Source of the DNA: Eledone cirrhosa
Lineage: Eukaryota
DNA length: 27,402 bases
Assembly (NCBI GenBank): GCA_964016885.1
Contig: CAXHJY010000005.1
Coordinates: 1 to 27,402, forward strand
Direction of reading: 5' to 3'
The stretch's first letter is position 1, and each line of letters begins with the position of its first letter. Shown piece after piece: positions 3,461 through 27,402 of this stretch. A program made the position numbers and the translations under genes. The notes beneath the pieces are model-generated. The model ran no database searches, had not been told where the DNA came from, and saw only the letters and a program-made list of their open reading frames with translations.

Positions 3461-5250
3461 TCGAGAGATGTTCGTTCTATTCCATAGTGAATTAACTGGC
3501 AATATGGATTATAATGGTATACATTTTTATTTGTAGTTATTTTCATAAAAACTATTAAACTGTTGAAGAAAATACACTATATGGAGTCGCGACTGGTCAA
3601 GCACCTATGACTGATTGATCATGTTTGCCTTATCAAAGCACAAGACTGGGCAAGATGTTTTAAGGAAGGTCAACAGTCAACCACACGTGCCATTCTCCAT
3701 TCTCTACTACATTGATATTGTTCAAGGGGAAAGGCAAATGTCGAACAGCTTGGCACCAGTATCGTCGAGACTCACCTTTTTCCAGCTGAATAGACTGAAG
3801 CAACATTAAATAAACTTGTACGGCTCGGTCCAAGAATCAAACTGACTATTTTACGATCGTGAGACCAAACATCCGAACAACTACGCCAGGTGCTTTCTAT
3901 ATGAGAGCACATGTTTCGAGATATCATTGTATTTTCAACAAGCATCTGTATTCTTGTAAGATTTAAATAATTGACAATGAGACGTACAAGTAGTAGATAT
4001 AGTGATTATTACTAGTCCTGTCAGCAGATATAATCTTGGAAAATATTAACCGAATAACAAAAGGATTTGCAGTTAGAATGTTTACATCAATATGTTATTA
4101 GGATTGTTTCTGACAGGTGGGATCGTGAAGGGGTTAATCGATATTGGCCAAAATCGATACTTATTCCGACAAGTGAAAGAATATTTTGTTGATAACGTGG
4201 TAATGCATAAAAATAGTTTATATTGGTCAAATATAACTATACCGCTGTGAAGGCACGTATCTTAGTGGTTCATGATCTTCAGGCCGTGAGATCGGTCTCG
4301 GATTGCGTCTTGTCCTTTAACAAGACGCTTAATTTTACTTGCTCCAATCCACCCAGCTAGTACAAAATGAGTTGAACCTGTAATTTAAAGAGCCAGCCTT
4401 ATCCCACACTGTCTGGCTGCTTTTCATGAGAATTACGATTAACATACAGGTGTCTAAGGAATGCTCAGCTATTTGTACCTTAATTTCACAAGCCGGCTGT
4501 TTCAATGTTCAAACCAACGGAGGTACACCCCAGTACCATATCTCTATCCATTCAGTCGTACATACTATGGAGGCTAACACCGAGAGAAACATGATTGTGG
4601 TCCTCAATAGCGCCACTAATGCAACTAGAGCAAAAGCATTGTATAGGTTAGAGGTGTAAGAAAGTAGTTCTCATGGCAAATACCAGTTAAATCATGTCAG
4701 TGATATGTAATTCACAGTTCCTTACTCCCATCAAATGTGTAACCATCTTTCTGCGTAACAAATCAATATATCCACATATGCATTGTGTGTGCATTTAAGA
4801 GGAAATAGTTGTTTAAACATTTTAAAGTAAATAGTTATGCGCGCAGTTTTTATCGATTTAATATTTTTTTGTTGTTGCAAGTTCATTTGTTTTTAGACAT
4901 GAATGAGAGTTTGTGGCGGTGGCATAAATGAAAACCATGAGAACCAAAACACCGTTACCAACTCGGTTTTCAGGGAATTTATCCTTTGTTTTACCCGGAG
5001 GAGAAAGTCGAGTAAATCGACCCAGTGCGTTACTGGTACTATATTTTATCAAACCAAAGGATGAAAGGCAAAGCTAACCTGATCATGACTTGAAACTAAA
5101 ATGTAAAGAGCCAGTGCATATACTGTAAATAATTTTTCTCACCATTTTAAGAATTCTGCCAACTCTCCACTAGCAAAAAAGAAAAAAAAAACTGCACTAT
5201 GATAGTAGGATAGAAAAGTAAGGACATTATTTAAAAAACAAAAAAGCGTT

Positions 5251-5685
5251 GGATTGGCAGTATCGGTAGAGCATCGGACAATATGCTTTGTTGCATAGTT
5301 GCGGCCCTTTATGTTCTGAGTTCAAATCCCACCGAGGTTAGCTTTGCCTTTCATCCCTACAGGGTCAAAAAATAAATTCCCAGTAACGCCACATGGTCAA
5401 TTTAATCAACTTCCCCTCTCCGAAAATTGTTGGCCTTGTGCCTAAATCAGAAAACATTATTTGAACAAGCAAAAGTGCAGTTGATTGGCAGTATTGGTAG
5501 AGCGTCGGACACTATGCTTCGTGGCATAATTTAGTCCCTTTACATTCGGAGTTCAAACCCGGCAGAGGTTACGTTTGTCTTTCATCCTTAAGGGGCTGAT
5601 AAAATAAAGTACCAGCATCTCATTGGGGTCGATTTAATCGACTTTCCACTTCCTCCAAATTGTTGGCCTTTTTGCCTAAATCAGA
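5251..5685 (+). mobile_element. Two tandem tRNA-derived SINEs (family A), 5251-5460 and 5483-5685
   Basis: Each has gattggcagtat(c/t)ggtagag, gttcaaa(t/c)cc, ctttcatcc and ggcct(t)tgtgcctaaatcag. Confidence 0.85.
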
Positions 5686-6269
5686 TTAAAAATTACCCCC
5701 CCCCCCCCCCCCCCCCCCAAAAAAAAAGTTGCTATTTTGGTGAGGACCATATGTGATGAACAGTGTGCTGGATTAATTCTTTCACGGTATTTGTTCCGGC
5801 TATCTGCATTCTGATTTCAAATCAATCCCACCGAAGTAAACTTTGTTTTTCGTCTTTTCTTTGTGATAGGTACATAAAATAATAGTCCTGAGATTGGCGG
5901 AATTGTTATAACATCTGTTATCTACTTCGGCATTTTGCATTCTATGATCACCTGAGATGGCACTAGTGACAAGCTATATCGTCTCTTGCTTTTCCTTTGG
6001 ACAACGTGTGCTTGGAAGGGAAAACGTTGCATGCATGGGCAACAATAGTTGGTCTTCCCCAAAATACTTTGGCTAGGATTTGAGGAGACTAGGTAATTGT
6101 CAATTACATATGATCGTCCGTATGGGAACTGCTCTTGTTTCTAGTACCTCTTAGAGAAGCTAACTTTTGCAGCGCTCTTGCTGTGGCATTGCAGGCATTA
6201 GTGGCGCCAATGATGGTCACAATCATGTTTTGCCTCCACGTGATGGTAATGTTATTATTACCAGAGACA

Positions 6270-6712
6270 GGGCGGTGGATTGGTAGTAACGGTAAAGCGT
6301 CGGACAAAATTCTTTGCGGCATATAGTTATAGCGCGTTATGTTCTGAATTCAAATCGCGCCGAGGTTAATTCTGCCTTTCATCATTTCAGGTTCGATAAA
6401 ATAAAATACCAGTAACGCACTGAGGTCGATTTAATCGACTTGTCTCTCCGCACAAATTGTTGGCCTTGTGCCTTAATCAGAAACAATTATTACCAGAGAG
6501 CGGTGGATTGGCTTGATCAGTGGAATGTTGGACAACATTCTTTGTGGTATTTGTTAGTTACGACTTTCTACGTTCTGTGTTCAAATCTACCGAGGTTAGC
6601 TTTGCCTGTCATCCTTGCGGGGTGGATAAAATAAAGTGCTAATCTACTACTCGGTCGATTATAATCACCTGTTTCCTCTCCTCACAAATTGGTGGTCTTA
6701 TGTCTAAAAAAG
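6270..6712 (+). mobile_element. Two tandem SINEs (family A), ~6270-6492 and ~6498-6712
   Basis: gcggtggattgg heads, ttcaaatc B-box, gataaaataaa body. Confidence 0.85.
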
Positions 6713-7005
6713 AACGGCTGGGAGATGTTGGATTTAGACGTGAATTTTCTGAATCTACAGAATAGTTGTTTGCTTTGTATAAGAACCACAAAAAAGGTGC
6801 TAAATACCTAAGGCTGCAGGACATTGCTTCATATCTATCAATCCAAATACCGACAAACGAGATGCAAAGTAAAAAAAATGTTGGTGATAAGAAAAGTTTG
6901 CTTTTAATGGCCACGAGAAAAATAAAACTTTAAACGAGAATCAGATTTATTTTAAGTAAAAAGGTGATTTTTGCCAATGATAAGGAAACATTAATAGATG
7001 CAATA

Positions 7006-10429: not shown

Positions 10430-12232
10430 CAGATGTTTTATAAATAAATATTGATATACCCGGAAAAAAAGACAACCTTAACGGTTGGAGCTTCCTGGAT
10501 AGTGGATAGTACATTTATTGAGTGATACAACATTGAGTGAGTATGCAAATGAGTGTCCGAAAGGTTGAAAAGATGACGGTTTATTTAAATTAAACTGTTG
10601 GAAGAAGGTGATATGTAAGGGAGAGAAAAAAGAAAAAAAGAAAAGGAGAAAGATAGAAGAGGAAAGAAAGAACGATTATATATATTGAAGAGATGAGTTT
10701 CAAAGGATAAATATTCACAGCGTAAGTATATCTAAGTGAGAGAAGAAATGATAATAACGTGGAAGAATAATATTTATAATGCAGGATTCATTACGTTTTG
10801 ATTATAATACTTATGATAGGTTGAAAAATTAGATTAAAATTAAATTAAAATTAAAAAATTAGAAATCAAAATTAAAGATTAAAATTTACCTTAATATTAA
10901 AGATTTAATTTAATAATTTAATAGTAATAATTAGTTTAAATGTGTATGTTAAGGATTATAAATTATTTAAATTAATATATAGTATATTACATTAGAGCAA
11001 ATCTAGTATAGTTTATTTTATTAAAAGTTGTAAGTCAAAAATTTAAACATCCAAATAACTCTAAATTTATGAAAAATTTACGAGAGTTTACAAAGGAATA
11101 ACCACTTAGTTATATTATAAAAACAGTAAGGAAGTGTAAAGGAAGTTAGAAGTGTTTTTTTTTTTTTTTTTTTTTTTTTCCCCCGTTTCAAGAACTCAGA
11201 TCACTCTAAGGATTAAATGTTATAAAGTTGAAAAGTTAAAATTTTTTTTATCTTAAGAATATAATTAAATCATGAACCATATGTTATTTTATACGAAGTC
11301 ATAAATTTACTTGCTATAAAGTTAAAACATTTAAAAAAATGTATCTTAAGAATATATTTAAAGCATAAACCATAGGTTATTCCACATATATATAAAAAAC
11401 CTATATATAAAAATCATGTTTTTTCCACATGTATATAAACATTTGGATATATATATTAAAAAAGTTTGAAGATATAAAAACATTGGAAGGTATGAAAATA
11501 ATGGTTTATCTATATCTTTAATAAGTGGTTATTCCTTTGTAAACTCTCGTAAAATTTTCATAAATTTAGAATTATTTGGATGTTTAAATTTTTGACTTAC
11601 AACTTTTAATAAAATAAACTATACTAGATTTGCTTTAATGAAAAATACTATATATTTATTTAAATAATTTATAATCCTTAACATACACATTTAAACTAAT
11701 TATTAATATTAAATTAAATCTTTAATATTAAGGTAAATTTTAATCTTTAATTTTGATTTCTAATTTTTTAATTTTAATTTAATTTTAATTTAATTTTTCA
11801 ACCTATCATTATAAGTATTATAATCAAAACGTAATGAATCCTGCATTATAAATATTATTCTTCCACGTTATTCTCATTTCTTCTCTCACTTAGATATACT
11901 TACGCTGTGTATATTTATCCTTTGAAACGCATCTCTTCATGCACTTTATTTTCACTATCAATATATATAATCGTTCTTTCTTTACTCTTCTATCTTTCTC
12001 CTTTCTTTTTTTCTCTCTCCCTTACATATCACCTTCTTCCAACAGTTTAATTTAAATAAACCGTTATCTTTTCAACCTTTCGGACAATCATTTGCATACT
12101 CACTCATAATTTTGTATCACCCTCAATAAATGTACTATCTCCACTATCCAGGAAGCTCCAACAGTTAAGGTTGTTTTTTTTTTTTTTTTTTTTTTTTCGG
12201 GTATGTCAATATTTATTTATTAAACAAATCTG

Positions 12233-12340: not shown

Positions 12341-12376
<36 letters not shown>

Positions 12377-12522
12377 TGTTATACTTTGGGAGGGTCATGT
12401 TGCCAATAAGAAACACACGCACCAGATGCTTTCACTTCAATTTATTATAATAAATTTATAAATTTAGGAATTTATAAATTTCCGGTTGGTTGGTTCCACA
12501 ACCAGATGGTTGTTTATATATT

Positions 12523-12565
12523 ATCAAAGTTCTTTCGTCACACATTCTGTGACCTCTTCAGTAAC
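12523..12565 (-). ncRNA. Minimal hammerhead motif with extra nucleotide after CUGANGA (left arm of fold-back 3)
   Basis: Minus strand: gtta CTGAAGA g gtcaca gaatg tgtgac GAAA gaact t tgat. Confidence 0.65.
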
Positions 12566-13148
12566 TGGGGATTCTTTTCTTTGTTTTTGTGCCTCTCCTT
12601 TGTTCTGTCCTACGCCATCTTGTTTCTGTGTGAGTATTGTGTGCTCAGTCTGCGCATGCGCCACATCTGTGTGTTTATATTCGTTTATTTATTTGTTTAT
12701 TTACATGTCACAGGTTGGTTGTTTGTTCTATGTGCGTGTGTGTTTTCATTTTGTCCTTAATTGTAAGTTGTGATGTTGCTGTTCCACTCATGTTTTCTAT
12801 TTAATTTTGGTTGTAATTCTTTTATGTTTATTGCCTCTGATTTGTCTAAACGCAATGTTTAGACAAATCACAGAGGCAATAAACATAAAAGAATTACAAC
12901 CAAAATTAAATAGAAAACATGAGTGGAACAGCAACATCACAACTTACAATTAAGGACAAAATGAAAACACACACGCACATAGAACAAACAACCAACCTGT
13001 AACATGTAAATAAACAAATAGATAAACGAATATAAACAGACACCCGGATGTGGCGCATGCGCAGACTGAGCACACAACACTCACACAGAAACAAGATGGC
13101 GTAGGACAGAACAAAGGAGAGGCACAACAACAAAGAAAAGAATCCCCA

Positions 13149-13189
13149 GTCACTGAAGAGGTCACAGAATGTGACGAAAGAACTTTGAC
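13149..13189 (+). ncRNA. Minimal hammerhead motif with extra nucleotide after CUGANGA (right arm of fold-back 3)
   Basis: gtca CTGAAGA(13153-13159) g gtcaca gaa tgtgac GAAA(13176-13179) gaact t(13185) tgac. Stem I GTCA/TGAC, 6-bp stem II, triplet CUU. Confidence 0.7.
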
Positions 13190-14094
13190 AATATATAAAC
13201 CATCTGGTTGTGGAACCAACCAACCAACCAACCGGAAATTTATAAATTTATTATAATAAATTGAAGTAAATACAACTGGTGCGTGTGTTTCTTATTGGCA
13301 ACATGACCCTCCCAAAGTATAACAATATCGGTTTCAACACACGTTTTCAGATAAAGAATCTTGCTAAACAAATTCAGAAACGAAATATATATATATATAT
13401 ATTAGCGTGTGTGTGAAAGAGGCAACTAGTCGAAACAGCCGAGTTCGATCCTCTATTTACACGCACGCACGCATATATCTACACACGCACACACACACAC
13501 GTGTATATATATATATATATAAATAAAAACACATATACACGTGTATATGTTTTAAGCTCTACTTGTTTGGCAAATGACTTGATCTAAAACTGAAGCAATT
13601 ACCGCTGCGAAGATTTTTTGACACCTCAATAAATAAACGAAAAGTAAATGTTACAGATTTTGTCTATTTAAATGGCTAACACTGCTCTTAAATAGCGTAA
13701 TTGCTATATACATAAATATATACACATATATACATAAATACATACATTCTCTCTTTCTCTCTCTTCTCTCTGTGTGTGTGTGTGAAATTCTATACGATAG
13801 TTTCCGAATTAGCTGAATATAGATGTTTTAGGAAGTAAAGGCAGATGTAATCACACAACAAATATAATTAAACCTATAGAAAAAAAACCCCAGGTTTTAA
13901 ATCATTTTGAATTCCTTACACATGTTTCAATAGTTATACTTCAAATTTTTCGAATAATACTAGATGGGAATTCGTATAATCCAGATCTGTACATACAAGA
14001 TGATATAGAGATATTTGGACTTGTCCATCTTCAGAGGATTAAAACAACGTATTAAATTGAAACCGGAATATATCAGAAATTTTATTCCCGCCTC

Positions 14095-16142: not shown

Positions 16143-17000
16143 TTGTTCTTGTTCTTCTTGAGAGGGTCGATAGGGGGGAGGGGCAGTCCTCAAACACTCC
16201 TTCCAGCGGGTCCAGTCAAAGAACTGCCTCCAACTGATCCGGCTGGATCCCCAAAGCGAGACCAGCCGAGTTCATGGATGTTAGCTGACCAATTGCTTGG
16301 TCTACTCCTGGGTCTCATGTCGGCTGGTTTTGCTCGTAAAACCTGTTCGGCAATTCTTTCCAAAGGCATTCTAACCACATGCCCATAGTATCGGAGCCGT
16401 GATCTTTCAATTGGGAGAAGCAGCGGCTCTGTCTGGAGTGACTCTCTGATCTCCAAGCTACGCACTCTCTCGTGTAACGTTACTACGAAGACTTTTCAGA
16501 AGAACCCCAATTCGGCCGTTGTATTTTCGATCGTATTCTTTCTGTCAATACCGAAGATTGATGGCCATAGGTAAGAGTTGGCACGAATACCGAATTGAAG
16601 ATAGTTTTACTATTATTGCTTTCTCCCTTCTTCTGATAACCGAATGCTGAAGCTGGCGCATTACTGCACCAGTTCATGCAAATCTTGCACTTAATTCTGC
16701 CTCCTGCCTTCCATCACTCGTGAACACGGCCCCGAGATACTTGAACGTCTGTACTTGCGTCAGTGGAAATACATTCACATGTAGAGTGCACTGCGCAGGC
16801 TTCCTTGAGAGGATGTCTGTTTTCACAGCACTGATTTTCATTCCAGACGTGCAGCACTCTGCATCAAACCTATCGAGTGCAAGTCGTAAATCACCTTCTG
16901 TCGAGTTAAGTAACACCATGTCGTCTGCAAGTTCCAGCCGACTGATTTTACACCCGCTAGTCATGATACCACTTCCAGCACGGCTGCGTATGTTCATGTA
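16143..17000 (-). mobile_element. 5'-truncated RTE-clade LINE (Expander/Rex3-like), RT C-terminal half, frameshifted
   Basis: ORFs 16674-17033, 16483-16677 and 16190-16465: LELADDMVLL (RT F/YADD box), GMKISAVKT, FKYLG, FVPTLTYGH, RLRYYGHVVRMP, RPRSRP; (AAG/AAC)n-like tail near 16143-16160. Confidence 0.9.
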
Positions 17001-17002
17001 AA

Positions 17003-17095
17003 TAATTTTCTCCTTTTGGCACAAGGCCAGCAATTATCCCAGTGTATTACTGGTACTTTATTTTATCGACCCCGTAAGGAGGAAAGGCAGTTAAC
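17003..17095 (-). mobile_element. SINE family A, 3' part
   Basis: ggcacaaggccagcaattatcccagtgtattactggtactttattttatcgaccccgtaagga, nearly identical to the copy at 21187-21377. Confidence 0.85.
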
Positions 17096-18507: not shown

Positions 18508-18712
18508 GTAGGTTGGTAGTATCGGTCAGACCACGTGCTTTGCAGCATAGTTATGGTCCTTTACGTTCTGAGCTCAAATCCCGCCTAGGTTAACTTGATT
18601 TTTTTTTCGACCTCGTAATGGATGACAAAGCAACTGTAATGCACTGGGGCCAATTTAATCGACTTTCCCCTCCACCACCAAATTGCTGGCCTTGAGCCTA
18701 TAATAAAAATCA
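18508..18712 (+). mobile_element. SINE family A, ~90 nt downstream of exon 2
   Basis: ttggtagtatcggt, gctcaaatcccgcc, aattgctggccttgagccta. Confidence 0.8.
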
Positions 18713-19649
18713 TTGTTGCTGTCTGCGGTCTGAGTTAAGATCCAATTGCGGTTAGCTTTCCCTTTCAGTCGATAAATTAAGCAACAGTTCAGAGTGGTGC
18801 ATGTTTTGTGTTATCTACTCCGGTTCTTTCTGTTCTGAGTTCGTTTCGCCTGTGCCAATGGACAGGATTAATCCCTAAATAAGAGATCACCCCATCCAAC
18901 CTGCACTTGGCCAGCGCTTACAGGTATGCCTAAAACCAGCATGGCTGCTGAGACGTCATCTAATAGTAGACCGAAAACGGTTGGATACATACACTAATAG
19001 GCTGTGAATCAACGTGACAGTGGTTGAAGTGTTCTACAGACGCGTGCACTCTTAGTGTAACTTTCAATTCCAAACAGCGTGGTATAATGTGTCAAAGCTG
19101 GACGATTGAACTACTGATACAATCTCACCTAACAGGCTTCCACTCAGTTTTAATCTACACAAACTTTACTCATAAGACTTGGAGGTGGGTCGAGCCCAAG
19201 CTAGGGTAAGAATTCTTGTTCAAGATGTCACAATGGAATCAAATTCGGGTCCTTAGGATTGCAAAACAAACTTCTTAATTACTACCATCTGAAAATAGAA
19301 GGCGGTGAGTTCAGAAAATCGTTAGAGCGTCATTAAAGGATTTGTGGTATTTGTTCCGGCTGTCTGTTCCACTGTTTAAACCCCAGCTAGATCAATTTGC
19401 CTTTCATAAAGAATCAGTCCATCCTATTACACGCATTACCAAGTAAACTGGGTTTCCTGGGTAAAGGAAAGAAAGGATTATTCAAGGAATAACCACCCAA
19501 ATAATAGTAGGCAGCAGAGTGCGCTGGGTTATCGAGGACAAGATCCGATGTTCTAATTAGAATAGTTATTTAATTTGTAGTTAATATAATTGTGATTTTT
19601 ATCACCACGTGTAACGCTCAATTATAAAGAAGATGGACTGAATAATTAA

Positions 19650-20585
19650 ATCGACTATGAGAGTTCCAGCCGTTAGATCAATGCAACTGCCTGTTCATGA
19701 AACTGACTTATAAGTGGTGGGGAATTCCAGACACTGACAAGGCTCGCTCATTGAATTACAGGTACAGTCTGTCCGGAGGGCTTCCAAGCAGTCTCCACCT
19801 ATTCAGTTTCCCACACAAGGCTTCTGTCGACCCAAGGCTAAATGACACTTGCTCAAAATGCTAGAGCATGTAATCGAACCCGTTATTTTATGATTGCAAA
19901 TCAAACTTCTTAAGCATTCACTCATTGCTTCCAGACCTTTAGATATAATAATTATACTAATTATAAAAATAATTTTAAACACTTTAAATTTGTCTACTTA
20001 TCGTTTATTATTGGTAGATTGGCAGTATCGGTAGAGCGCCGGACAAAATGCTTTGCGGCGTAGTTACGGCCCTTTACGTTCTGAGTTCAAATCCCACCGA
20101 GGTTAGCTTTGCTTTTCATCCTGCTGGGGTCGATAAAATAAAGCACCAGTAATGCACTGTGGTCGATTTAAACGACTTTCCCCTCCCATCAAATTGCTGA
20201 CCTTGTGCCTAAATCGGAAACTGTTATTTAACGCCAAGTCGCCTTTAATCAAGTATATCTGTGATTAAAGGCATTTCAGCAAATACTCTATCTTTTGTGT
20301 TGGGGATAATATTCTCGTGCCTACATTCGCCAATGTTAGTTTGGGTGGTATTTCGTTGTTATTTTTAGCGGATCCAAAGTATAAGCTCATCTCTTAAAGT
20401 ATATCAAGTCTGTCGCGATGGTGATAACTATAATATAGAAGTAATTCTGATTGCAAATTCTGTAGACCATTTTTTAAATCTTAATATGGGTGTCTGCAGA
20501 AGTGAACTCATAAAAAAAAGATAAGATATTCATAATTGAAAAATGTTATACATTTAGAGAATGTTTAAGTATTATGTTTCAGACT
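19650..20585 (-). repeat. Inverted copy of segment 2690-3460, interrupted by a younger SINE at ~20016-20228
   Basis: Alignment to 2690-3460 continues on both sides of the SINE (ggggttaacaaaaaacgataag at ~3082-3103 is contiguous in the first copy). Confidence 0.75.
20016..20228 (+). mobile_element. SINE family A, full length
   Basis: gattggcagtatcggtagagcg...gttcaaatccc...ccttgtgcctaaatcggaaac. Confidence 0.9.
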
Positions 20586-21755: not shown

Positions 21756-22497
21756 AAGAACATTGGTAATAGCACCTCCAATAAGAAACGTTTATTTGTG
21801 AGAGCCTGTTAAAAACTCACAAAAATATACCAACAGGAAACTTGTTTTATTTTGAGAAAATTAAGAAGTTGAAAGTACCGTTTAGCTGTCTACGTGCATT
21901 GTTCATAGAAATATTGTTGAGCCCCTTCTGTGACAGTTGTCCCCCGGCGTTTCCACTCTGTTTTGGCCTATTGGAGTAAATGTGAAAGAGAAAGTCACAG
22001 GTTAAGTTGGCAGAAGGTTCCAGTGTCATAGCAGTAAGGCGTAGGCTACTTACCTCAAAAGTTCTTTCCACTAAGTTACTCATTCTCTCTATCCCTCTCA
22101 GTGGAGTCCCTTGCGAATTTCTAGCGTAGGCCTGGTGTAGATTTGCACCCGATTCAAAGCTTTATCACATTTTAAGAAATAGCAGATATCTTTACCAAAA
22201 ATTAACTTTTTTAAAATCCCAATTTGTCACGAAAATTCTGGCGCAGGTCACACAAAAGTAGTTAGCGGGTTGCGGATTTGAGACCCCCGTGTCAGAGCAT
22301 TTGATAGAATATCTCGTACAATTTGTTCCGGCACTCTACGTTCTAAATTCATATCTCACTGGGGTCAACTTTGCCTTCCGAGATCAATAAAAATAAGTAC
22401 CAGTTATATACTGGAGTAGATTCATCAAAATCCCCTTCCCTAAAATTTGCTGGCCTTGTGTCTAAATTAGAAACGATTATTCAATAATATAAATGCA

Positions 22498-22950
22498 GTG
22501 AATTGAAAGAATCATTAGAGCAGCGGACAAAATACTTTGCTGTATTTATTCCGGCTCTTTACGTTCGGAGTTCAAATCCCACTGAGGTCAATTTTGCTTT
22601 TCAGGTAGATAAAATAATTTTCTACTTTTGGCACAAGGCCAGCAGTTATCCCAGTGCATTGCTGGTACTTTATTTTATCGACTCCCGTAAGGGTGAAAGG
22701 CAAAGTTAACCTCGGCGGGATTTGAACTCAGATCGTAAAGGGACATAACTCTATGTTGGAAAGCATGGCGTCCGACCCTCCACCGATACTGCCAATCCAC
22801 CGCCCTTGGCAGATAAAAGTACTGGGATCAATATAATGTACCAGTAAAAGTACTGGGATCAATATAACCAAATTTCTCCTCCCTTCTAAAATTGAATTTT
22901 TCCTCCCACATAAATTGCTGACCTTGTTCTTAAATAATAAATCGTTATTT
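22498..22950. mobile_element. Nested SINEs: minus-strand copy 22615-22810 inserted into a plus-strand copy
   Basis: 8-bp TSD AGATAAAA at 22607-22614 and 22811-22818; the host SINE resumes afterwards (with a 23-bp duplication at 22814-22836 / 22845-22867). Another + copy lies at ~22260-22480. Confidence 0.8.
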
Positions 22951-23071: not shown

Positions 23072-24924
23072 GTATACTATTAAAGTAATAAAGTCTTAAT
23101 AATGAATGAGAATTGTATTGTGGAGAGGCGGATCCATGGCTGTATGCCTAGGAAATTAGCTTCCCACCTACCCGATTTTTGATTTTGATATAATTTATTA
23201 TTGCTCTGCGTTGATCAATGGAATTTGGTAGGTGGTGGGACCAATTCTGCTTTTGAGTGGTTGAATTCATTCCAGAATCTACTTTGTTCCACCTATTCCG
23301 AGCAAATCTCCCTGCTAGATAAAAATAATTATTTTTCTTTCGCCAGTCAGAAAGAGTCGAAAAAGGGTTATAGGTGCTGATCTTCCTTCTCCGTTCTTGG
23401 ATGATCGAATTCATCTATCACCCATTTTAACATTGCCGCCGCCATCACAACATCTGTGCGCTTTTAGCGGAATCTATTTTACTGTATGCATTTGGATCAA
23501 GTCTCGGGGATGACCAAGAATGTCTTTCTCTTCGCCAGTCACAGCGGCTCTGAAAAGCGTTAATAGAATTGTCCTTTCTCTGTCTAAACCATTTAAAATT
23601 GATACAACCTATTTGTCTCATTAATTGTATATTTGTATTGACCCGATCATTTTGAACAGCTAACTATTGCACAGAGATTTCCATGGATTAGCAGAAACAA
23701 TACTTTTGTTTCTAGGATATACGCCACCCAGACTTAAGTGTAAAAGTTAAAAAAAAAATTCCCTTTAGATATATAAATATGAACACAGACCACGATTATT
23801 ATAAAGTATTGGATCAATTCAATCGATTGCATCCTTGCTTTGCTCAGTTGCGTTATTTTTTACGATTGCCCATATCTTCTTCTTTTCTACATCATTTAAA
23901 CTGCGATCATAACTAAATTGGCAGTCGTTAGTGCGTAAGATAAAACATCTTTTCAGTGTTTCTTTCGGTGTTCTTTGCTCTGAATTCAAATTACTCTGAG
24001 GGGCAACATTGCCTTTCATCCTTTCAAGTTCGATAGAACAAAGTACCTGTCCAGGATGGTGGATTGTCAGAATTATTAAAGCATCAGCCGATATGCCTTG
24101 TGGTATTTGTTCTGGCTCTTCACCTTCTGAATTCAACTGCAGTTGTAGCTTATTTGGGTGGTAGACATAATCCGCCACCTGGTTGATCCCATCACAGATC
24201 TGCCAACCTCCAAAAACCTAAATGGGGAGTACCATGAAAAAAGTGCCCCAAAATGGGGAGGTTTTACATAATGAAAGTTATACCCATTTTCACAAAAACA
24301 GACGGAGAAATGGACCAAAATGGGGATATTTCCCCGTTTGACAGGGGAGAGTTGATAGTTCTGTCTTCCCATGTCCCCTGAATGCCTTTAGCGGAGTCCA
24401 CTCTTTGGCAAATATTCAGTTACTGTTTCCGTTTAAAAAATACTTTGTTTCCACCCTGTCATTCGTCTCAGATCATGGAAAATGGCCAAGGGAAAAGTAA
24501 TAAATTGTTAGAACATAAATGGGTCTAACTAAATACTACTGAGTTCAAAATTCGCTGAGATGAATTTATTTTTCATCCTAGTGGGATCGATTAAAGGAAG
24601 TACCGGGTAAGCATAAAGGTCAATTTAATTGGCTACACTCCCTTTGCCATCATTTTGGGGTCTTGTGTGAATTTTAGAAAGCAATATTTCACTTTAGAGA
24701 AGAAAAAAAAAAAATTAGAAAATAACAAAGAAATTGTATTGAAAAGATGTTAGAAACCATTACAATATTAATTTGAGATATTTTTGTCTGTGTACTAAGA
24801 AGCCATATTACATCTTGTTATCGGTTGTAAAAGTTTTATATTTTTTTTGAGTGTTCGCATTTCTTCTTGCTTTATCACATTATGTTGAAAGCCATTTATA
24901 GCCATTTTTAAATACATTTGACAG

Positions 24925-25106: not shown

Positions 25107-25532
25107 TGACTTCATGCCGAGGTTGACTTTGCCTTTCATCCTTACGGGGTCGATAAAATAAAGTACCAGTAATGCACTGAGTATTTGCTGGCCTTGTGCC
25201 TAAAGTAGAAACAATTATTATAGGATAGGGCGGTGAATTGGCAGTATCGGTAGAGGGTTGGACGCCATGATTCTAGCATAGTTACGTCGAGGTTAACTTT
25301 GCCTTTCATCCTTACGGAGTCAATAAAATAAAATACCAGTATTATAGGATTGGCAGTATCGGTAGACGGTCGGAAGCCATGCCTTGCAGCATAGTTACGT
25401 CCCTTTGCGGTCAGAGTTCAAATCCTGCCGAGGTTAAATTTGCCTTTCATCCTCAGGGGGTCGATAAAATAAAGCACCAGTAATGCGCTGGGATAATTGC
25501 TGGCCTTGTTCCCAAACGTAGAAACAATTATT
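25107..25532 (+). mobile_element. Three tandem SINE family A copies (partly truncated) just downstream of exon 4
   Basis: Three repeats of gaggtt.a.tttgcctttcatcct...ataaaataaa..accagta at ~25119, ~25289 and ~25430. Confidence 0.85.
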
Positions 25533-25794
25533 ATAGCTGGTAAATTGACACTCGTTATAGCATTTGTTCTATTAAAATCGCCCACCTCAGCTTTCCCTTT
25601 CACCTATTATTCCTTATATATGGTGCGGAAATAACTTCACCAGCGAAACGCGCGTATTCAATAGAGGGAAATGTAAACTTAATCAAATTTTGTATATTAC
25701 AACAGGTCTTTCGGACTGAGTGATCTGCCAACTTTGGATAATTAATTTTTTTAAAAGAAATTCACTTTATATATATATATATATATATATATTT

Positions 25795-26189
25795 ATTATA
25801 TTTGGGGAGGGTCATGTTGTTAGAATATTGCCAGAAATAACAAAACACTGTCTGGTTTAGATTGGTTTTCAATTCTGTATCTTTTATATCTCCATAGTTA
25901 ATTTATCTGGCAATCAATGTTTATCATTGATAGACCAAGGGTTAAAAATACCGATATATAATATATTAAAGTTCTTTCGTCATACATCTGACATCATCAG
26001 TGATACTATTGTTTCCTCCCGTTGTATTGTAATGTCTGCGCCATTTTTATTTTATTTATTTATTTATTTATTCTTCTGTTTGCGCATGCGTTGGGGTGTG
26101 TGTTCATGTTTGAGTCTGCGTTTTTGTAGTCTATCTTTGTTCACTAGTGTGTTTGTATGTTTGTTGTTATTGTACTTGTGTGTGTGTGT

Positions 26190-26190
<1 letters not shown>
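25795..26190 (-). mobile_element. Solo, diverged relative of the fold-back 3 arm, flanked by (TA)n
   Basis: Shares the terminus tttgg(g)gagggtcatgttg, aaagttctttcgtca and gcgcatgcg with 12373-12851. Confidence 0.75.
25964..26005 (-). ncRNA. Minimal hammerhead motif with extra nucleotide after CUGANGA
   Basis: Minus strand: tatca CTGATGA t gtca gatgta tgac GAAA gaact t taata; stem I has one C.A mismatch. Confidence 0.6.

Positions 26191-27402
<1,212 letters not shown>

Follow-up and report, generated by a model that had tools for sequence, protein, structure and literature searches.

Minimal hammerhead motifs with a non-palindromic loop III in a probable Penelope-like retroelement of Eledone cirrhosa

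The locus

We focus here on a window of 27,402 nucleotides (Eledone cirrhosa, assembly GCA_964016885.1, contig CAXHJY010000005.1, positions 1 to 27,402 of the forward strand), which holds three copies of a minimal hammerhead-like motif of type I that has a one-nucleotide insert, a CUU triplet and a 2-bp helix III. The copies lie at 13149..13189 on the forward strand and at 12523..12565 and 25964..26005 on the reverse strand, with the inserts G, G and U, as a first-pass annotation of the sequence had read them, and an exact search of the window with the 15-mer TGACGAAAGAACTTT returns these three motif sites only. The motif at 13149 is composed of stem I GUCA/UGAC, CUGAAGA, the inserted G, a stem II of up to 6 bp, GAAA, G-AA-C, U16.1 and U17, with the predicted cut between 13185 and 13186; its loop II is short through a 2-nt deletion common to a few other copies. 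The core CUGANGA ... GAAA ... UH with a type I stem I is present at 13149 and 12523. The annotation had taken GUUA/UGAU at 12523 to be a pairing-preserving variant of stem I, but it results from two private C>T changes away from the family sequence GUCA/UGAC, which leave wobbles in place of two stem I pairs, without compensation. Nor are the stems of the third copy kept as had been proposed: the motif at 25964 is decayed, with a C.A mismatch at the second stem I pair, so that it fails a 3-bp stem I test, and with stem II shortened by 2 nt relative to its own family (lineage F2).

The two motifs near 13 kb sit in the arms of one inverted insertion. The right arm (12850..13386, forward strand) is a 5′-truncated Penelope-like copy which, on translation, opens with the last 33 codons of the element ORF. 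This C-terminal end, at 12852..12953 on the forward strand, has the same C-terminus as the frames of four longer copies (L061, L063, L069 and L101); it is followed by the 3′ UTR or pseudo-LTR (pLTR) with the hammerhead, by an ORF-start tail and then by a TA run. The tail (13303..13386, forward strand) is an optional feature that represents the first 28 codons of the element ORF; it is found on the right arm only, and L101 carries its frame on into the element body. The left arm (12375..12851, reverse strand) is an inverted 5′-truncated copy of the same insertion, without the tail and with a TA run at its end. The arms overlap by 2 nt at 12850-12851; of 446 aligned positions, 18 differ between them, in part through misalignment in a short repeat. 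The third motif belongs to an older copy of the F2 sister lineage (25792..26180, ends approximate, reverse strand), which is truncated to the 3′ UTR, flanked by TA runs and carries the ORF-start ATG at 25815. The three motifs are thus real as motifs, but the window holds two independent insertions and not three. Being on opposite strands, the 12.5-kb and 13.1-kb motifs cannot share one transcript, and the copies in the window are likely to be inert remnants. Rfam microRNA matches over 12759-12953 score below gathering and were set aside as reflecting the inverted repeat itself. A 1.2-kb TA-rich microsatellite (26189-27401) adjoins the 25964 copy and reaches the contig end.

The host element

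The first-pass annotation missed the retroelement context, which becomes apparent from longer copies. Ten longer loci were taken at places where listed copies were spaced by a few kb. Four of them (L061, L063, L065 and L069) contain a reverse transcriptase (RT) frame with YVDD, a CX4CxxC finger and a GIY-YIG endonuclease (EN) frame directly upstream of the motif, and four others (L064, L066, L067 and L062) contain parts of these frames. The RT and the C-terminal GIY-YIG lie in adjacent frames in several copies, interrupted by frameshifts. Pfam matches to RVT_1 (E=6.6e-5) and to the GIY-YIG domain (E=1.4e-4 and 3.2e-4) all fall just under their curated cut-offs, the N-terminal frame has no Pfam match, and a PDB sequence search matched no solved structure. 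In the long copy L101, motifs at 738, 4937 and 5260 lie in one orientation around an 881-residue frame, those at 738 and 4937 flanking the ORF on both sides. The motif is placed about 200 nt past the ORF stop codon and about 120 nt ahead of the next ORF start; a conserved block 120 nt downstream of the motif is the ORF start. Longer copies of the sister lineage represented by the 25964 motif bear the same EN remnant. Two further RT/GIY-YIG families occur in these loci (L068 and L070), and a descriptor scan found no hammerhead adjoining them.

The finger within the linker joining RT and EN reads C-IDKK-C-II-C in L061 and others, which fits the CX2-5CxxC of Neptune. Judged by this finger, the element matches the description of an EN+ Penelope-like element (PLE) of Neptune type; a linker finger is also found in Nematis, and the Neptune placement is tentative. 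As in the Neptune-type EN+ PLEs described by Craig et al. 2021 (PMC8557442), a single ORF would encode RT, CX4CxxC finger and C-terminal GIY-YIG, and insertions have an inverted 5′-truncated partner, an optional tail and (TA)n microsatellite targets. In contrast to that description, the tail here is about 60 nt rather than 30-40, and DKG reads DKS. The partial tandem or inverted 5′-truncated structure with optional tail is seen both in the arms of the window and in L101. To sample copies without regard to the motif, we searched with a 29-nt 3′ anchor alone and kept 88 distinct copies among the first 100 of its 23,958 matches; 44 of these copies carry the ORF-start tail, and most copies end in TA runs.

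The motif also agrees with the minimal hammerheads of PLEs as presented by Cervera and De la Pena 2014 (PMC4209133), with a type I layout in the pLTR, a short helix I, a 6-bp helix II and a G10.1-C11.1 pair, thousands of single truncated copies, and opposite-strand pairs 100-700 bp apart. We are almost certain that it is a PLE minimal hammerhead by descent. We also consider the fuller reading highly probable, namely that a Penelope-like retroelement with many copies carries the motif as the minimal hammerhead of its 3′ pseudo-LTR, that the copies in the window are truncated ones, and that a weak dimer cut is likely in tandem elements. A non-LTR retrozyme was also considered and rejected. Such units are tandem repeats of 150-300 nt; the window has no head-to-tail short-repeat array with hammerheads, and its copies are ORF-bearing truncations.

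The extra nucleotide and the triplet

The first-pass annotation had regarded the nucleotide inserted between A9 and position 10.1 as non-canonical. It is in fact a consensus feature of PLE minimal hammerheads, present by our own count in 54 of the 56 rows of Fig. S3 in PMC4209133, and the descriptor published there in 2014 permits it; the feature has been in print for PLE hammerheads since 2014, nothing changes by it, and the only departure of the present motif is its non-palindromic loop III. The CUU triplet occurs in three rows of the same figure (Oikopleura, Philodina and Chrysemys), and the Oikopleura row has the 2-bp helix III of the form G-NN-C found here. The identity of the insert differs somewhat: it is G in F1 and F4 and U in F2 and F3, and G, the base of the main lineage, falls outside the published consensus (H at >80%) and is seen in one of the 56 rows (Nasonia, PMC4209133). 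Since our search patterns presuppose the insert, only the sample chosen without regard to the motif speaks to its constancy; there, 57 of 59 copies have it, and long gaps account for the remaining two. Similarly, all 18 distinct rows have the G10.1-C11.1 pair, which the patterns used to pick them require; the unselected sample has G in 56 and C in 57 of 59 copies.

Outside PLEs, the closest likeness is to the plus-strand hammerhead of the viroid CChMVd, in which an extra A10 places one nucleotide between A9 and G10.1 (PMC3705267, PMC1636495), although that ribozyme is of type III, active as a monomer and derived from a plant viroid. In the viroid hammerhead a G insert is reported as strongly detrimental (PMC3705267) and a U insert as raising the rate 3-4-fold (De la Pena and Flores 2001, as given in PMC3705267 and PMC1636495).

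The proposal that standard descriptors would miss the motif is borne out, for another reason than the one given. Among 69 Rfam matches in the window, with E up to 10, there is no hammerhead family. The strict 2014 descriptor, re-coded with two letters between GAAA and UH, finds none of the motifs; when four letters are allowed it finds two of the three in the window, and the third fails on stem I. It is thus the 4-nt GAAC segment, not the insert, that makes the strict descriptor miss the motif. Both Rfam and the strict published descriptor therefore overlook a family whose motifs number well above ten thousand in a single genome.

Loop III and the predicted dimer

In the consensus of PMC4209133, both the 15.2-16.2 pair and loop 3 are palindromic. 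Here the 15.2-16.2 pair is G-C and follows this rule, on which the dimer model depends, but loop III is AA, GA or AG and departs from it. The loop is AA in F1, F2 and F3 (in 97 of the first 100 F3 matches, by hand count) and AG in F4 (77 of the first 100 of 1,248 matches, by hand count), and it is GA in another sub-lineage, which also has A17 (91 of the first 100 of 4,346 matches, by hand count). Watson-Crick palindromic loops account for 13 of the first 100 of the 1,248 matches and for 4 of the first 100 of the 4,346; they are about as frequent as non-pairing transversions (10 AC), and are strewn over the lineages in the manner of point mutations. Among the first 100 matches of either set there is no sign of a palindromic ancestor lineage.

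Nearest-neighbour energies for the dimer helix III, with core tertiary contacts left out, are +2.4 kcal/mol for AA, -0.4 for AG, -1.7 for GA and -5.0 for AU, so that the AA dimer helix is predicted to be about 7 kcal/mol weaker than one with AU. In the same kind of energy model, a monomer is less favourable by 5.7 kcal/mol when helix III is closed than when it is open. Two explanations of the loop types were tried and found unsupported. Selection for purine-only loops is one, since, of 12 shared UTR changes from A, 10 are A>G, and two A>G loop changes are thus expected. The other is a trend towards more stable dimers in younger lineages; the GA group has a mean pairwise divergence of 0.036 (n=14) versus 0.023 (n=10) in its AA sister.

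As regards precedent, Perreault 2011 describes 'the vast majority', not all, of these loops as palindromic. No G-purine-purine-C is present among the 56 rows published in PMC4209133, where Latimeria 3 alone is non-palindromic, in another way. A search of publications other than Lunse et al. 2017 (RNA Biol 14:1499), which concerns variants of these ribozymes, retrieved none on a non-palindromic loop III in a PLE. What makes the departure of interest is its persistence in lineages that have drifted apart to near-random identity in their flanks. It may be that this is a hammerhead which works without self-complementarity of helix III, either in a dimer, with tandem purine-purine mismatches (A.A, sheared G.A, A.G) holding the two copies together, or in a monomer that the element's RT-EN protein completes; we put this forward tentatively, as an unlikely reading. 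If true, it would widen the hammerhead consensus and provide a natural switch that leaves the template uncut until the protein binds. The family supplies natural AA, GA and AG loops together with G and U inserts, material for one cleavage panel.

Lineages and selection

Comparison of the lineages allows conservation of the motif to be set against its surroundings. The 26-kb copy had been described as much more diverged outside the motif, and this is correct: identity between the 13-kb and 26-kb copies is 0.76 in the motif versus 0.49-0.55 in the flanks, where the shuffled level in the family comparison is about 0.4-0.55. Yet the ribozyme is matched in conservation by another block, located around the start codon of the ORF, with an identity of 0.81. 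Across families (9-10 copies each), motif identity is 0.83 between F1 and F2 and 0.73 between F1 and F3, with flanks at 0.41-0.58, near shuffled values. Lineage F3, with stem II GUUGCA/UGCAAC, has 4,671 matches.

Pairing was assessed over 12 pairs in 20 hand-picked rows, 18 of them distinct. Paired cells make up 94.9% of 214, compared with 20-44% in slid controls. Changes on both sides occur in 3 of the 12 pairs, two in stem II and one in stem I, each a single lineage event, and their number does not exceed that in a shuffle control (405/500). With about five lineages, a covariation significance test would count copies rather than events. At one position of stem I, 6 of 18 rows do not pair, and most F2 and F3 copies have a C.A or C.U mismatch in this stem. 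In F2 and F3 (L149, L152-L171, L072-L100), the mismatched inner stem I can be extended by eye for 4-5 pairs past a bulge, a possible loop-1 contact which F1 does not have.

Variants shared by at least three F1 copies are absent from all 34 constrained positions and occur at 3 of 9 tolerant, 36 of 227 UTR and 15 of 164 coding positions. The difference between constrained and UTR positions has a Fisher p of 0.004, or 0.016 at a threshold of five copies, with positions treated as independent and some UTR variants possibly alignment noise. Private mutations have a rate of 1.1% at constrained positions versus 1.5% in UTR and ORF. Between lineages, changes are confined to N7, the inserted nucleotide, loops II and III, H17 (U or A) and stem pairs; position 17 itself is U in 32, A in 24 and G in 1 of 59 copies. 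This pattern of sequence change indicates that selection acts at the level of element lineages, on active elements and not on inserted copies. The earlier suggestion of a selected motif thus holds for the lineages, while the changes among window copies that had been cited for it represent decay after insertion.

Cleavage, copying and alternative modes of action

We propose that when two motifs share a transcript of a full tandem element, they would pair into a weak dimer, probably with help from protein, and cut after CUU. Helix III would have no monomer form, and a dimer form only with two A.A mismatches; cleavage is for this reason likely to be slow. This is in line with the low self-cleavage as a dimer in vitro reported by Cervera and De la Pena 2014 (PMC4209133). 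The genomic copies bear on how often such a cut takes place. Of the 88 sampled copies, 69 have alignments that begin upstream of the cut (one of them short of the anchor) and 19 begin 5-106 nt downstream; none starts within 4 nt of the cut, the nearest being at +5 (two copies) and -16, and the cut site was on these grounds rejected as a 5′ boundary of copies. Because copying starts downstream, at the tail, the long copies must stem from RNA that was continuous across the site, being either uncut or cut and re-joined, and this probably applies to most copies. In tandem transcripts, a dimer that is slow and probably assisted by protein would then trim the RNA only occasionally. Outside the 88-copy sample, one inverted copy (L068:5095) begins no more than 2 nt from the predicted cut, which is compatible with chance. 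Two RNA runs (0.04 share, contigs only) cover window positions 12850-13006, and the motif lies outside the covered stretch.

The Poseidon element PAc of Anolis (Frangieh et al. 2024, PMC11167929) offers a parallel for such a course of events. There, too, two end points within the start of the ORF delimit the tail, templates are apparently uncut and the cut site is without ends; the ribozyme needs protein, assisted cleavage having been shown, and uncut RNA is the main template. The two elements differ in that the ORF starts inside the ribozyme in Anolis and about 120 nt past the cut here.

The absence of copy starts within 4 nt of the cut in 88 copies, with 69 spanning it, would also suit a motif that is kept as a folded RNA signal, for protein binding or for positioning the start of reverse transcription, with no useful cleavage left. 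Both the non-palindromic loop III and the G insert predict poor activity, and catalytic mutants of the anole element are without effect on insertion in vitro (PMC11167929). On the other hand, it is precisely the catalytic positions that do not vary, and the changes follow the pattern predicted by selection on chemistry. We consider a pure signal unlikely, and somewhat favour the view that an active element is still able to cleave.

A further model, proposed in PMC4209133, is that both motifs of a tandem cut efficiently and the released piece is re-joined to a circle and then reverse-transcribed across the junction. It would explain the ORF-start tail after the 3′ pLTR as well as partial tandems such as L101, and, if it is true, copies spanning the site are no sign of weak cleavage. 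However, short copies starting at the cut do not pile up, the predicted dimer is weak, and the anole data reported in PMC11167929 have no reads ending at the site. Efficient cutting followed by circularization thus seems improbable to us, and slow dimer cleavage of tandem transcripts is the reading we retain.

That these genomic copies are themselves selected as host regulatory ribozymes, as the first-pass annotation implied, might be argued from the intact core and stems of the 13149 copy. Among unselected copies, however, 49 of 59 likewise have an intact core (and about 56 of 59 have GUCA/UGAC), the rate of private mutations at constrained positions is close to that in UTR and ORF, and the other two window copies have stem damage; a host function is very improbable. 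Finally, we discount almost entirely a chance match or an assembly artefact, even though a loose hammerhead pattern is weak on its own (its 10 matches are reached in 5 of 100 shuffles) and the contig is short, since the family pattern has 8,995 exact matches in the 3.0-Gb genome versus 0 for the reversed control, which shows that the motif is not chance, the motif has a fixed place in a retroelement, and the differences between the arms mark them as no duplicated read. The family as a whole exceeds 15,000 copies.

Other repeats in the window

Apart from the Penelope-like copies, the window contains an inverted repeat, rich in AT, whose arms of about 430 bp lie at 10686-11119 and 11511-11939 and are 94-97% complementary. 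It belongs to a dispersed family with 765 first-look candidates, 92-97% identity among 40 that were scored and some members in inverted pairs. About a dozen copies of a dispersed repeat of 200-230 nt, some head-to-tail, lie at 913-1114, 5238-5685, 6264-6714, 18529-18767, 20003-20228, 22326-22949, 23995-24617 and 25115-25535; it resembles a tRNA-derived SINE, of a kind common in octopus genomes. Fragments at 16190-17033 on the reverse strand resemble the C-terminal region of a LINE reverse transcriptase.
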